DNA of 64,000 nucleotides, taken from contig CAWIAD010000002.1 in assembly GCA_963833985.1 (NCBI GenBank), positions 672,001 through 736,000 on the forward strand, in the 5' to 3' direction. A program made the position numbers and the translations under genes. The notes under the pieces are model-generated. The model did no database searches and was not told the origin of the DNA. It saw nothing but the letters and a program-made list of their open reading frames with translations. The stretch's first letter is position 1; each line of letters starts with the position of its first letter. The stretch comes from an uncultured Planctomycetaceae bacterium. GTDB taxonomy: Bacteria > Planctomycetota > Planctomycetia > Isosphaerales > Isosphaeraceae. Positions 1 through 22,171 of the stretch are shown piece after piece.

Positions 1-1323
1 CTCGATCTTGAGCTTGGCCCAGCCCGATTCGACGGCCTTGGTCATGCCGCCCATCGACTCCACTTCCTCGATGATCGCCCACGCCTGGTCGGCCATGTCC
101 TGCGTGAGCTTCTCCATCAGGTAAGAACCAGCCCATGGATCAATTACATTACATATGTGAGTCTCTTCCTGGATGATGATCTGCGTGTTGCGGGCGATGC
201 GCGCCGAGAAGTCGGAGGGCAGCGCGATGGCCTCGTCGAACGAGTTGGTGTGCAGCGACTGGGTGCCGCCGAAGACGGCGGCCATGGCCTCGACGGCCGT
301 GCGCACGACGTTGTTGTAGGGGTCTTGCTCGGTGAGCGACCAGCCCGAGGTCTGGCAATGGGTCCGCAGCATCATCGACTTCGGCTTCTTGGGATTGAAG
401 CCCTTCATGATCCGCCACCAGAGCAGCCGCGCGGCGCGGAGCTTGGCCACCTCCAGGTAGAAGTTCATGCCGATGGCGAAGAAGAAGCTGAGGCGGCCGG
501 CGAAGTCGTCCACGTCCAGCCCCTTGGCCAGCGCGGTCTTCACGTATTCCTTGCCGTCGGCCAGGGTGAAGGCCAGCTCCAGCACCTGCGTGGCACCCGC
601 CTCCTGCATGTGGTAGCCGGAGATCGAGATCGAGTTGAACCTCGGCATATGATGCGCCGTGTACTCGATGATGTCGGCCACGATCCGCATCGACGGCTCG
701 GGCGGGTAGATGTACGTGTTGCGGACCATGAACTCCTTGAGGATGTCGTTCTGGATGGTGCCCGAGAGCTTCTCCTGCGAGATTCCCTGCTCCTCGGCGG
801 CGACGATGTAGCCGGCCAGCACCGGCAGCACGGCGCCGTTCATGGTCATCGACACCGAGATCCTGTCGAGCGGAATTCCATTGAAGAGGATCTTCATGTC
901 CTCAACGGAATCGATCGCGACGCCGGCCTTGCCCACGTCGCCCTGGACGCGGGGATGGTCCGAGTCATACCCGCGGTGCGTGGCCAGGTCGAAGGCCACC
1001 GAGATGCCCTGCCCGCCGCCGGCCAGCGCCTGCTTGTAAAATGCGTTGGATTCCTCGGCGGTGGAGAAGCCCGCGTACTGCCGGATGGTCCACGGCCGGA
1101 CGGCGTACATGGTCGCCTGCGGCCCGCGCACGAAGGGCTCGAAGCCGGGCAGCGTGTCGGCGTAGGGCAGATCCGCCACGTCCTTCTGCGTGTACAACGG
1201 TTTGACGACGATGCCCTCGGGGGTTTTCCAGTCAAGGGAAGCGACATCGCCTCCCGGCGCGGACTTCGCCGCCGCCTTCTGCCACGCGTCCAGGTTCGCG
1301 GAGCTCATCACTTTTTCGCTCAT
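1..1323 (-). CDS. scpA: Methylmalonyl-CoA mutase (B12-dependent), 5' part; runs off the left window edge
   Basis: Not in the ORF track (no stop in window). Manual translation gives [23 protein letters not shown]...[11 protein letters not shown]...[21 protein letters not shown]...[13 protein letters not shown]...[20 protein letters not shown]...[12 protein letters not shown]...[11 protein letters not shown], hallmark MCM motifs. Confidence 0.96.
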
Positions 1324-2193
1324 GTTCAGGCCTCAAATGCAAATGGTCCGAGCATGTTCGCCCGGTTCGAGACGGCTTCGATGAAGCCGGCGAACGACAG
1401 GCCCGCTGACCTCGTCACCGTCAGCCAGTTGCATCCCAAAGTTCTTCCAGTCCATGCTCTCAGGCGAAACCGATCCCACCCATGAACGGGTGAGCGATAG
1501 AGGTTCGGAGCAGCCGGGAGAGGGCATCATCCGACGACGCCTGAGCCCTGAAGATACCCCAAAGCAAGCGCCGGAGCCATTGCCGAACCAGCACAACCAC
1601 GATTTTCGATCTTCCCTCTTCAAGTCCATCCTCCGTCGGGGCCTCCTTCCTCTCCCATCGATGTCGGCCCTCCCGCCCGCCACGGACGCGCGGTCACGTC
1701 ATGTCCCGGGAAGTCTGCCGCCATCGTCGTTGAGTCGCTCCGGAAGCCACGCATTTCGGAAGACCTCGTTCCTCACATCCGGGCAGAGACACCAGCGCCC
1801 CGACGGTGCGGAATTGGCTTCGTTCTCGCCATCATGCCAGCGAAGCCATCGGACGTAACTCTCTTTTTGAATGAGCTTTACATACGCATTTCCCGGGTTT
1901 TCATTTGGGTTCGGTCCGCGTTTTTTTGCAAGCAGCCGTGGCGATTCCCACATCAGGTAGGGTGCGGTCGAGCGCAGCGAGGCCCACCAGACGGCCAGGT
2001 GATGGACGCCGGCGCGCCGCCAGGCTTTCCCCTGGCGGCGCCCTGGTCCGTACAAACAACCGAAATGCCAAGGAGCCGGCGCATTGCGCCACTCTATTGA
2101 GTTTACGATGCGGACGCCGCGGATCTTGCCAACCAGTACACGGTTTGCTCTCCTTGTGCCGGCGCGGTCGGATCACTTCACCTCAGGTGCCCC

Positions 2194-2922
2194 ATGCGTC
2201 TGCTCTTCTCGTCGGTTCACTGTTACCTGGACCCCTCCGGCGGCGCGTCGTTGTGCACGCGGGAACTCCTGGAGCTGCTCGCGGCACGGGGGATGGATTG
2301 CCGCGTGCTCACGGCCGGCATCCTCGACACCGAGCGAGAAACGACCCTCGACGAGCTGCTCGGGGCGCTGGAACTTCCCGCGCAGCGATTCCACGCGGAA
2401 CGGAAATCGGGCCAGGCCGCCGAGGTGCTCGACCTGAATGTGAACGGCGTGCGGGTCACGCTCATGCCCACGGCGTCCAGCCGCGGCGAGCGGTCGCCCG
2501 ACCCGCGTGAAGCGGCGGTCTTCCTCGACCTGGCCGACCAGGTCCTCGACCGCTTCAAGCCCGGCGTCCTCTTGACCTACGGCGGCCATCCGGTCAGCCT
2601 CGCGCTCATGCACCGGGCACGACAGCGCGGCATCGCGGTCGTGTTTCACCTGCACAATTTTGGATACAACGACCGCTCGGCGTTCGCCGATGTCTCGGCG
2701 GTGATCTTCCCGTCGGAATACTCCCGGCGCTATCACACCCGGCTGCTGAACCTGGACGGCCCGGTGATCCCCGACCCGATCCCGCTCGACCCCATCGTCG
2801 CCGCGGACCCGGAGCCGAGATACCTCACGTTCATCAACCCGCAGCCTTCCAAGGGCGTCACGGTCTTCGCGCGGATCGCCGCCGAGCTGAACCAGAGCCG
2901 CCCCGAAATCCCCCTGCTGTAG
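2194..2922 (+). pseudogene. Glycosyltransferase family 4 (GT-B) N-terminal half, truncated
   Basis: MRLLFSSVHCYLDPSGGASL...VFHLHNFGY...VIFPSEY...TFINPQPSKG resembles GT4. TAG at 2920-2922 falls early in the C-terminal domain and the downstream sequence is unrelated. Confidence 0.7.
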
Positions 2923-19409: not shown

Positions 19410-21322
19410 GTGGAACTGAAATCGAACGTACCGCCTGGCCCCATCGAGCAGAAGTGGACGCAGCACAAGTTTGAGATGAAGCTGGTGAACCCGGCCAACA
19501 AGCGGAAGTATTCCGTGATCGTGGTGGGAACGGGCCTGGCCGGCGGCTCGGCGGCCGCCTCGCTGGCGGAGCTGGGGTACCAGGTCTCCTGCTTCTGTTA
19601 TCAGGACAGCCCGCGCCGCGCGCACTCGATCGCCGCCCAGGGAGGAATCAACGCGGCCAAGAACTATCAGAACGACGGCGACAGCGTCTTCCGACTTTTT
19701 TACGACACGGTCAAGGGGGGCGATTTCCGGGCCCGCGAGGCGAACGTCTACCGCCTGGCGGAGGTGTCGGTGAACATCATCGACCAGTGCGTCGCGCAGG
19801 GCGTGCCGTTCGCCCGCGAGTACGGCGGCCTGCTGGCGAACCGCTCCTTCGGCGGTGCCCAGGTTTCGCGCACCTTCTATGCCCGCGGCCAGACCGGCCA
19901 GCAACTGCTCCTCGGTGCCTATCAGGCCCTCCAGAGGCAGGTCGGCCTGGGTGCGATCAAGATGTTCCCGCGGCACGAGATGCAGGAACTGGTGGTGATC
20001 GACGGCAAGGCGCGGGGCATCGTCGCCCGCGATCTGGAGACCGGCGTCGTCGAGTCCTACGTCGCCGATGCCGTCATCCTGGCGACTGGCGGCTACGGCA
20101 CCGTCTTCTACCTGGCCACCTACGCCAAGGGCTGCAACACCACGGCCATCTGGCGTGCCTACAAGAAGGGCGCGGCGTTCGCCAACCCGTGCTATACCCA
20201 GATTCACCCGACCTGCATTCCGGTCACCGGCGAACACCAGAGCAAGCTGACCCTGATGTCCGAATCGCTCCGCAACGACGGCCGGATCTGGGTGCCCAAG
20301 AAGAAGGGAGACACCCGCCCGCCGGACCAGATACCCGAGGACGAGCGCGACTACTACCTGGAGCGCAAGTACCCGAGCTTCGGCAACCTCTCGCCCCGCG
20401 ACATCTCCTCGCGCAGGCCAAGGAGGTCTGCGATGAGGGCAGGGGGGTGGGCAAGACCGGGCTCGGCGTCTACCTCGATTTTGCCGACGCGATCAACCGG
20501 CTGGGCGTCGCGACCATCCGCGAGCGCTACGGCAACCTGTTCGACATGTACGAGCGGATCACCGACGAGGACCCCTACAAGGTGCCGATGCGCATCTTCC
20601 CGGCGGTCCACTACACCATGGGCGGGCTCTGGGTCGATTACCACCTGATGAGCACGATCCCCGGCCTGTTCGTGCTGGGCGAGGCCAACTTCTCCGACCA
20701 TGGCGCCAACCGCCTGGGCGCCAGCGCGCTCATGCAGGGGCTGGCCGACGGTTACTTCGTGATTCCCTATACCCTGGGCAATTACTTCGCGTCGAACAAG
20801 TTCGACAAGATCGGCACCGATCACTCGGCCTTCAAGACCGCCGAGAGCTGGGTATCCGACCGCACCCAGAGGCTGCTGTCGATCCGGGGATCGCGCACCG
20901 TGGACGACTTCCACCGCGAGCTGGGCAAGATCCTCTGGAACTATTGTGGCATGGCCCGTAACGAGCACGGGCTGAAGACAGCGCTCGAACTGATTCCCGG
21001 CCTGCGCGAGCGGTTCTGGAAGGAAGTTCGCGTCCTGGGCGACGGCCAGGAGGTGAATCAGTCGCTGGAGAAGGCCGGCCGCGTGGCCGACTTCCTGGAG
21101 CTGGGAGAGCTCATGTGTCTCGACGCCCTGGAGCGACGTGAATCGGCGGGCGGCCATTTCCGCGAGGAGTTCCAGACCAAGGAAGGTGAGGCCCTGCGCG
21201 ACGACCAGAACTTCTGCCATGTCGCCGCCTGGGAGTACACCGGCGACGGCAACCGCCCGAACAGGCTCGTCGAGCCGCTCGAGTTCGAGATCGTGCACCT
21301 GCAAACACGAAGCTACAAGTAA
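19410..21322 (+). CDS. sdhA: Succinate dehydrogenase/fumarate reductase flavoprotein subunit; one frameshift near 20412
   Basis: [26 protein letters not shown] in ORF 19410; [23 protein letters not shown] in the next frame. Confidence 0.93.
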
Positions 21323-21370
21323 AGCCAAACCGCACTGGACCGCGGCTGAACTCCATAGAGAGGACGATCC

Positions 21371-22171
21371 ATGTCCCAGAATGGCTCTGAACAGACCATC
21401 AACCTGACCTTGAATGTCTGGCGGCAGAAAAACCGCACTTCGCCCGGACGCTTCGAGACTTACTCGGCACGCGACATCAGTACCGACATGTCGTTTCTCG
21501 AGATGCTCGACGTGGTCAACGAACGGCTCATCCTCGACGGGAAGGAGCCGATCGCCTTCGACCACGATTGCCGCGAGGGGATCTGCGGGCAATGCGGGGT
21601 GGTCATCAACGGCGATGCGCACGGCCCAAGGCGCGCCACCACCACCTGCCAGTTGCACATGCGCAGCTTCCACAACGGCGATATCCTGACCGTCGAGCCC
21701 TGGCGCGCCACAGCCTTTCCGGTGATCAAGGACCTGATGGTCGATCGCGGGGCGTTCGACCGGATCATCGCGCGCGGCGGGTTCATCTCGGTGCGCACCG
21801 GCAACGCTCCGGAGGCCAACGACATCCCCATTCCCAAGGAGAATGCCGACCTGTCGATGGACGCGGCCGCCTGCATTGCCTGCGGCGCCTGCGTGGCGGC
21901 GTGCCCGAACGCCTCCGCCATGCTCTTCGTCTCGGCCAAGGCGCAGCACCTCAACCTGCTGCCCCAGGGCGAGCCCGAAAAACAGCGCCGCGTCACCGGC
22001 ATGATCGACCAGATGGACGCGGAAGGCTTCGGCAGTTGCACGAACCACGGCGAATGCGAGGCCGCTTGCCCCAAGGAAATCCGCATGGAGTTCATCGGCC
22101 GCACCAACCGCGACTTCCTCAAGGCTAGCCTGCACAAGGTCCGGCAGGCCGACTCCGCCGGCGCATTGTGA
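21371..22171 (+). CDS. sdhB: Succinate dehydrogenase/fumarate reductase Fe-S subunit
   Basis: [33 protein letters not shown]. Confidence 0.95.

Follow-up and report, generated by a model that had tools for sequence, protein, structure and literature searches.

A transcarboxylase cluster among polyhydroxyalkanoate genes in an Aquisphaera-like planctomycete: a possible low-oxygen route to hydroxyvalerate storage

What does a full set of propionate-type carboxyl-transfer genes do in a planctomycete of a group described as aerobic, and what links it to the polyhydroxyalkanoate (PHA) genes around it? The locus occupies the first 22 kb of a 64,000-nucleotide stretch of DNA (the window; positions 672001–736000 of one contig, CAWIAD010000002.1) from an uncultured bacterium whose genome, here G000 (GCA_963833985.1), comprises 10.16 Mb in two contigs and is 96% complete with 65% G+C; other G numbers denote comparison genomes and L numbers extracted loci. 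The host is best placed as an Aquisphaera-like member of Isosphaeraceae. The nearest named homologues of its transcarboxylase 5S subunit, from Aquisphaera insulae and A. giovannonii, are 87–88% identical, and in the 5S tree the window protein joins both species and five loci from metagenome-assembled genomes of Isosphaeraceae or unclassified planctomycetes (Shimodaira–Hasegawa-like approximate likelihood ratio support 80). A chimeric contig is disfavoured because the same gene order recurs in same-genus genomes. We propose, with a confidence that stops short of an even chance, that the cluster runs a succinate-to-propionyl-CoA route under low oxygen and channels sugar carbon and electrons into hydroxyvalerate-rich PHA. 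This proposal is based on gene identities, gene order, conservation and co-occurrence; reductive use as such, ending either in stored polymer or in excreted propionate, is probable. The pathway genes of the window are the following.

1–1323, minus strand: methylmalonyl-CoA mutase (ScpA type), 5′ part; NF006944, 859 bits on 441 aa; runs on to the left of the window
8004–8087, minus strand: 28-codon remnant of a dihydrolipoamide acyltransferase (E2); 68% identity to the E2 of G005
8039–10498, minus strand: single-chain AceE-like 2-oxoacid dehydrogenase E1; TIGR00759, 181 bits (cut-off 860)
10940–11371, plus strand: phasin-like protein; PF09361, 25.0 bits (cut-off 24.9)
11448–11957, plus strand: short PhaE/PhaR-like protein, weakly assigned by paralogy; no family match
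12365–13180, plus strand: short-chain dehydrogenase/reductase (SDR) of ketoacyl type, not a canonical PhaB; NF006072, 125 bits (cut-off 298)
13715–15232, plus strand: transcarboxylase 5S, 505 aa; NF008984, 944 bits (cut-off 827)
15255–16817, plus strand: transcarboxylase 12S; PDB 1on3, 755 bits
16831–17229, plus strand: small fourth protein, putative linker subunit; coiled coil and OadG-like C-terminal motif
17232–17624, plus strand: transcarboxylase 1.3S biotin carrier; best PDB matches 1o78 and 1dcz; AMKM motif
17711–18142, plus strand: methylmalonyl-CoA epimerase; TIGR03081, 143 bits (cut-off 115)
18680–19381, plus strand: SdhC, cytochrome b of the b558 family; TIGR02046, 170 bits (cut-off 96)
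19410–21322, plus strand: SdhA flavoprotein in two frames, split near 20414; NF005749 on both halves
21371–22171, plus strand: SdhB iron-sulfur subunit; NF005746, 426 bits (cut-off 243)

A sequence-only reading of this stretch had described a Wood–Werkman-type propionyl-CoA module joined to PHA-like genes in a planctomycete-like genome. The host assignment agrees with it, and the genes it listed (5S without a biotin domain, 12S, the small subunit, 1.3S, epimerase, sdhCAB, E1, and the phasin-like, PhaE-like and reductase genes) are all present where it placed them. Its inclusion of the mutase holds in part: the gene is there, but on the opposite strand and 6.7 kb from E1, behind insertion-sequence (IS) debris.

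Judged by sequence, 5S, 12S and 1.3S are subunits of a Propionibacterium-type transcarboxylase (EC 2.1.3.1). 5S is a stand-alone pyruvate carboxyltransferase in which Pfam shows no biotin domain. It does not reach the OadA equivalog (663 bits against a cut-off of 756), and among solved structures it matches PDB 1rqb with 771 bits, compared with 504 for PycB and 494 for OadA. 12S scores higher against 1on3 than against the best PccB (644 bits) and is only 52% identical to the genome's own PccB, while 1.3S is a separate biotin carrier within the operon. Database entries already label these planctomycete proteins 5S. In a 5S tree (LG+G4), support of 100 sets all 87 5S-type rows apart from the four outgroups (OadA, PycB, Pyc), under a long-branch warning at that node. 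The tree, from which the broken or partial loci L060, L071 and L082 were left out, holds no named Propionibacterium row, and likeness to the Propionibacterium 5S rests on the match to 1rqb; its deep branches are mostly unresolved, and we claim no donor or order of transfer. The genes for 5S, 12S, the small protein and 1.3S recur together in most of the 80 related loci (12S in 76, the small gene in 72, 1.3S in 74), and the four-gene set is thus not a chance one; these loci are the best 80 of 493 in a scan of species genomes, where contig ends often cut them. The four-gene polycistron of P. freudenreichii, with tags 18870 (5S), 18860 (12S) and 18840 (1.3S), fits the same order in the available text of PMC2909200.

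Alternatively, the biotin genes could encode a decarboxylase that pumps sodium, or a pyruvate carboxylase of two subunits: 12S does reach 752 bits against the MmdA family, short of the cut-off of 999, and the small protein weakly resembles OadG. We find this scarcely credible. The 5S rows stand apart from OadA, PycB and Pyc, the small protein has no membrane anchor, a fused pyruvate carboxylase gene sits elsewhere in G000, and OadB (PF03977) is not found above cut-off in any of five genomes (G000 and four relatives) in which controls were positive. The sequence-only reading was thus right that no sodium-pumping beta subunit accompanies the cluster, and its case for true transcarboxylation stands by sequence. 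However, its argument from a missing biotin carboxylase was wrong, since pccA, with a biotin carboxylase domain, lies in the same cluster 5–9 kb past the window edge. Of the outcomes it had named against itself, namely 5S grouping with OadA or PycB, a non-planctomycete or chimeric contig and a genome without phaC, none was observed.

The small protein of the set possesses an N-terminal coiled coil and a conserved C-terminal helix–strand–W..GR end (W-x3-GR motif). PF04277 (OadG) matches 19 of 47 homologues weakly, always below cut-off; N-terminal hydropathy stays at ≤0.86. Its profile retrieved only generic coiled coils from PDB, and the atlas returned only unnamed clusters. When complex prediction paired the small protein with the N-terminus of 1.3S and the C-terminus of 5S, the score was 0.32 against 0.02 for the best control, runs agreed in at least 76% of contacts, and the predicted local distance difference test score of the partners was at least 56. 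Among solved pairs 116 of 157 attain the mark set for such predictions, among mismatched pairs 2 of 215, and 18 of these solved pairs and both mismatches lie at ≤0.60. Our guess, which the model supports weakly, is that the small protein links 5S and 1.3S.

Which partners travel with the enzyme? We compared 61 genomes (G000, 13 same-genus, 23 other family and 24 other class genomes). At ≥80% identity 5S occurs in G000, 12 of 13 same-genus, 6 of 23 other family and none of 24 other class genomes, with 87–91% identity within the genus; lower matches in this comparison, at 34–41%, lie in open frames as long as those typical of a fused pyruvate carboxylase. In an even sampling of complete genomes, 16 of 151 carry 5S, and 15 of these belong to the family. 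Cultured, named carriers are A. insulae, A. giovannonii, Tautonia, Paludisphaera soli and Aporhodopirellula, and hosts among the best 80 loci include Isosphaeraceae, Gemmataceae, Pirellulales, Acidobacteriota, Rhodoferax, Zoogloea, Dermatophilaceae with Candidatus (Ca.) Phosphoribacter, and Armatimonadota. The mutase is found in 19/19 carriers of 5S against 9/42 non-carriers, a succinate CoA-transferase (TIGR03458) in 18/19 against 1/42, and class III PhaC in 14/19 against 2/42. A second set, 50 of the 80 locus genomes (two share coordinates with two of the 61), contains the mutase in 49 and the CoA-transferase in 39. These counts include kin and are not independent, and p-values were given no weight. 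Within the 80 loci themselves lie the epimerase (40), mutase (26), meaB (22), CoA-transferase (18), phaC (8) and sdhB (8). That CoA-transferase and mutase travel with 5S argues that the conserved core is a closed Wood–Werkman ring in which carboxyl group and CoA would both be recycled.

G000 encodes all enzymes of this putative ring: mutase, epimerase, succinate CoA-transferase, malate dehydrogenase, fumarase and succinate dehydrogenase/fumarate reductase. CoA-transferase and malate dehydrogenase exceed their family cut-offs, the latter via TIGR01759; the best TIGR01763 match, sitting among aldolase, aldehyde dehydrogenase and kinase genes, was rejected as malate dehydrogenase. Both fumA- and fumC-like genes are present, as are two futalosine-type menaquinone genes and matches to the glyoxylate shunt, pyruvate:ferredoxin oxidoreductase and cytochrome bd. 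The genome search suggested by the sequence-only reading (phaC, CoA-transferase, malate dehydrogenase, fumarases, glycogen genes) therefore found each of its targets. Fumarate reductase as part of the core fared less well: sdhCAB is present, but it is the only such set found in G000, where the remaining tricarboxylic acid (TCA) cycle genes are also present, and it is a housekeeping respiratory copy rather than a dedicated fumarate reductase.

The same co-occurrence would suit a plain Wood–Werkman fermentation, in which the reductive ring ends in propionate excreted via the CoA-transferase, and the PHA genes are neighbours sharing a low-oxygen regulon. Besides the near-exclusive pairing of CoA-transferase with 5S and its place inside 18 of the 80 loci, an operon in G031 favours it, composed of CoA-transferase, two mutase subunits, meaB, 5S, 12S, the small gene, 1.3S and epimerase, with no PhaC or PccA found; an acyl-CoA thioesterase also stands beside 5S in 9/80 loci. 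However, within the genus it is phasin- and PhaE-like genes that head the operon, whereas the CoA-transferase gene is not linked to it, and an open-access literature search surfaced no propionate formation by Isosphaeraceae. Lacipirellula parvula produced only lactate according to the available part of PMC6995999, but 5S is patchy in that genus (8/14) and the report is not tied to a carrier, hence we rejected this physiology as a test of propionate formation. Propionate production by Paludibaculum fermentans found no confirmation in the matched text and is not drawn on here. We regard excretion as unlikely, though a serious competitor.

The CoA-transferase gene lies 3′ of an acetolactate-synthase-like large subunit in G000 (L135:2476–6352) and G004 (L146:7132–11117), and in G000 a sigma-54 type regulator adjoins it; this locus is possibly a second, separately controlled half of the pathway. 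Near 5S, a GltD-like iron-sulfur flavoprotein occurs in about 14 of the 80 loci across phyla (L045:8830–10179 and 13 others), a possible electron donor to the ring.

What speaks for storage is the company that 5S keeps within the genus. In G000 and in six of the nine same-genus regions compared (G002, G004, G005, G009, G010, G012), 5S is immediately preceded, on its own strand, by phasin-like, PhaE-like and SDR genes. The phasin-like gene has paralogues at the head of the main pha operon (45%) and 5′ of a second phaC, and the SDR has an 80% paralogue directly 3′ of that second phaC. The PhaE-like protein has a 42% paralogue between phaA and phaB, itself matching TIGR01834 at E 0.003, and shares 31% over 61 aa with a PhaR/PhaE-like protein of L021 (atlas lead 0.89); these partner candidates are short proteins whose family matches fall far below cut-off. 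To the left of the window the mutase operon continues with two inserted genes, meaB, pccB and pccA. The last two, an ATP-dependent propionyl-CoA carboxylase, face an operon of phasin, phaA, PhaE-like, phaB and class III phaC genes. phaC lies about 11 kb and glgC about 29 kb beyond the edge. The main PhaC is of class III (TIGR01836, 397 bits, cut-off 365), a type present in 14/14 genus genomes against 2/47 others. In seven of eight genus genomes tested pccA is within 5 kb of phaC, and in the eighth at 19 kb, a proximity that would be expected were the polymer to yield propionyl-CoA. In G005 and G012, as in G000, the entire supercluster lies together in a single stretch. Glycogen genes for synthesis and breakdown (glgC, glgB, glgX, glgP, GlgE) are encoded in G000, and a GlpX fructose-bisphosphatase stands near 5S in 7/80 loci.

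The PHA link extends less far than the ring, comprising the whole genus and a different pha operon beside 5S in 8/80 loci (Gemmataceae, Pirellulaceae and unclassified planctomycetes). In the latter the order is phaA–phaB–phaE–phaC and PhaC is 33% identical, which suggests a separate recruitment, although the 5S tree does not force it. A further pha locus of G000 (L134:6366–10014) contains a PhaR-like regulator, a phasin-like gene, a divergent PhaC that stays below its cut-off (203 bits) and the SDR paralogue.

Under the storage reading, one pyruvate would go to acetyl-CoA, while another would take its carboxyl group from methylmalonyl-CoA through transcarboxylase, giving oxaloacetate without ATP. 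Oxaloacetate would pass via malate and fumarate to succinate, with the single menaquinone-linked SdhCAB working in reverse. Succinyl-CoA would then be rearranged by mutase and epimerase and give the carboxyl group back, leaving propionyl-CoA. Thiolase, reductase and PhaC/PhaE would join acetyl-CoA and propionyl-CoA into polymer, and the succinate CoA-transferase would provide an exit for surplus as propionate. Once oxygen is available again, polymer-derived propionyl-CoA would be brought back to succinyl-CoA by the ATP-driven carboxylase and the mutase, a return leg that glpX and glgC would also fit.

By textbook biochemistry, glucose provides three reducing pairs, two from glycolysis and one at pyruvate dehydrogenase, and one hydroxyvalerate unit formed via malate, succinate and ketoacyl reduction consumes three. 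If propionyl-CoA is retained, one ATP is spent on activating succinate. With three pairs made and three used, conversion of glucose to one 3-hydroxyvalerate plus CO2 would be redox-neutral with net ATP and no acid excreted. An internal, non-acid product would suit acid peat. Aquisphaera is a core genus of boreal peat at 5–15 cm, with 6–8% of core genera in one survey (PMC13643928, as far as its accessible text goes). The standard model of glycogen-accumulating organisms follows this redox logic in the available portions of PMC4930944 and PMC12604563. We speculate, more doubtfully than for the storage route itself, that Aquisphaera-like planctomycetes, which abound in surface peat and soils, are natural glycogen-accumulating organisms that survive anoxia by an acid-free, internal fermentation in which sugar or glycogen becomes hydroxyvalerate-rich PHA through an ATP-free transcarboxylase, and that this coupling was recruited at least twice in Planctomycetia.

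Several observations weigh against storage as the function of the cluster. Outside the genus, 5S carriers hold the mutase in 6/6, the CoA-transferase in 5/6 and PhaC in 1/6 genomes, so that 5S is tied more tightly to CoA-transferase than to PhaC; in 28 5S-bearing planctomycete genomes the figures are 25 for CoA-transferase and 11 for PhaC. Class III PhaC was not found in five of the six 5S-bearing genomes of other family genera, nor in Tautonia sp. JC769, Paludisphaera soli or the Rhodopirellula group, and P. soli, where that PhaC was not detected, shares the layout of 5S, carboxylase, mutase and sdh. The idea of one module with PHA, taken from the sequence-only reading, hence holds across the genus but not in most of these other carriers. 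The PhaZ family TIGR01849 was not found in the five genomes searched, classical GlgA was not found in G000, where GlgE is present, and the route presumes a thiolase that accepts propionyl-CoA. Exact FNR, CRP, Rex and sigma-54 consensus sequences are absent from the three upstream regions scanned. The position of single-copy SdhCAB may only reflect central metabolism, five cluster genes have frame breaks (sdhA, mutase, meaB, pccA and phaA), and G000 has lost the E2, glpX and thioesterase genes that relatives carry. Finally, Aquisphaera is described as aerobic (PMC13643928, accessible text), and syntrophic propionate oxidisers run the same enzyme backwards, all steps being reversible (PMC11212195, in the portion seen).

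The last two points lead to the opposite direction of flow. In oxidative use the ring would be reversed for ATP-free uptake of propionate to pyruvate, the carboxylase would top up C4 acids, and PHA would store the excess. Reversibility of the reactions (matched text of PMC2909200), the precedent of the syntrophs (PMC11212195) and the placement of the host group above fermenting layers (PMC13643928) agree with this, each source being seen in part. So do the co-located SDH as a respiratory copy and the joint occurrence of carboxylase and transcarboxylase in a PhaC-less genus too (6/6). However, other outlets for propionyl-CoA are encoded, namely the carboxylase–mutase route and methylcitrate-like genes, which are scattered and among which the synthase alone exceeds its cut-off. 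Moreover, we know of no aerobe that uses transcarboxylase oxidatively. We consider oxidative use improbable, albeit not negligible.

Is the locus of G000 still functional? About 6 kb of the gap between mutase and E1 is filled with multi-copy IS and glycosyltransferase debris, a mobile-DNA insertion that is not part of the pathway.

1813–7879, no strand assigned: mobile-DNA insertion with IS5, IS4, glycosyltransferase fragment and other repeats
2194–2922, within the insertion: glycosyltransferase fragment
4022–4819, within the insertion: IS5 transposase
4877–5935, within the insertion: IS4 transposase

A blastn search of 1401–8100 against the genome itself gave 50 matches, self match included. 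An E2 gene is kept between E1 and mutase in five of the nine same-genus regions (G004, G005, G007, G011, G012); its best family in G005 is TIGR01349 (401 bits, below the cut-off of 445), and the debris has reduced it to 28 codons in G000. Homologues of E1 are labelled pyruvate dehydrogenase E1, transketolase or DXS in databases; the family they form is very large, with scores for 7906 of 8000 candidates. A housekeeping pyruvate dehydrogenase was rejected for this E1, as a pdhA–pdhB–E2–lpd set sits elsewhere in the genome, and its pairing with E2 and the mutase–carboxylase operon hints at a 2-oxoacid substrate. The B12-binding end of the mutase falls in another frame, and sdhA has one base fewer than two relatives at its break point.

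This damage raises the alternative that the locus is decaying in G000, or that the PHA-like genes are incidental passengers: IS elements destroyed E2, glpX and thioesterase are absent, and the five genes listed above are broken. We deem this very unlikely. The four transcarboxylase genes remain intact, 5S is well conserved within the genus, and the genome, which has the remaining TCA cycle genes, contains sdhA in a single copy. Genome-wide, 5 of 35 reference-matched loci are also frame-split, and assemblies of relatives break at other places; for these reasons assembly error is the likely cause of the breaks, including that in sdhA. No sequencing run contained more than 0.06 of the window's words. 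Contigs assembled from three runs are 85–99% relatives. Coverage by a soil RNA run reached 29 of 30 bins, which is no measure of expression level or habitat, and an Rfam scan of the window gave zero matches.

Several known systems resemble the cluster. With the transcarboxylase and Wood–Werkman cycle of P. freudenreichii it shares the best PDB matches of 5S, 12S and 1.3S, the four-gene order, epimerase, mutase, CoA-transferase and succinate dehydrogenase/fumarate reductase. Unlike there, the host is a planctomycete, the mutase is single-chain and linked with an ATP-dependent propionyl-CoA carboxylase, sdh is present as one set instead of two, epimerase and sdh follow directly 3′ of the transcarboxylase genes on the same strand, and PHA genes lie both in and beside the cluster. 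Glycogen-accumulating organisms (Ca. Propionivibrio, Ca. Accumulibacter type II) share the reductive TCA branch and a methylmalonyl-CoA route to propionyl-CoA for polyhydroxyvalerate, which here is a predicted one. Their models, in the available text of PMC4930944 and PMC12604563, name methylmalonyl-CoA decarboxylase and propionyl-CoA carboxylase, whereas we propose a soluble transcarboxylase with a class III-type PhaC; the terms "carboxytransferase" and "carboxyltransferase" occur in neither main text. Syntrophic propionate oxidisers share a three-subunit transcarboxylase with mutase, epimerase and SDH (PMC11212195, in part), but the present host is an oxygen-respiring heterotroph with no Rnf match in G000 and with storage genes attached. 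The sulfur-oxidising symbiont Ca. Kentron, a PHA- and glycogen-storing cell, has a pathway figure with methylmalonyl-CoA carboxytransferase, epimerase and mutase (PMC6593406); it differs in host and energy source, and the matched text of that paper contains neither a link of the enzyme to PHA synthesis nor gene clustering.

The open-access literature yielded no paper on transcarboxylase or this pathway in planctomycetes; subscription papers, including most species descriptions, lie outside that coverage. A comparative genomics paper on four Isosphaeraceae does not mention propionate, methylmalonyl or PHA in its accessible text. PhaC in the phylum is probably already on record, as a PhaC survey names planctomycetes once (PMC8312272). 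Enzyme and cycle are known, and it is the lineage and storage context that we did not find described there. The proposal assigns a concrete anoxic metabolism to a genus that is regarded as aerobic, although it abounds where the water table rises and falls. If flow is reductive, the cells would store sugar carbon as poly(3-hydroxybutyrate-co-3-hydroxyvalerate) (PHBV) or release propionate to syntrophs and methanogens, which would shift their role in the carbon flow of peat. For PHBV production, too, a native pathway that makes hydroxyvalerate from sugar and needs no propionate feed would be of interest.

The layout is conserved within the genus, in line with the synteny survey that the sequence-only reading had called for. 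Downstream of the cluster, in several genus members as well as in the window, lies one further gene.

22193–22954, plus strand: metallo-beta-lactamase-fold hydrolase, 3′ of sdhB

A quinone-oxidoreductase-like gene and a 682-aa protein of no known family are placed between mutase and meaB (L001:15869–19043) only in G000 among the regions compared. A LarA-family nickel-dependent hydroxyacid racemase (L001:1161–2603) adjoins the pha operon in G000, G005 and G012. Aldolase, acylating aldehyde dehydrogenase, kinase and lactate-dehydrogenase-like genes at L142:4382–10887 form what we take to resemble a planctomycete sugar microcompartment locus. Elsewhere in the genome (G000:C1:3434563–3436058) there is a second mutase-family gene, which is frame-split.

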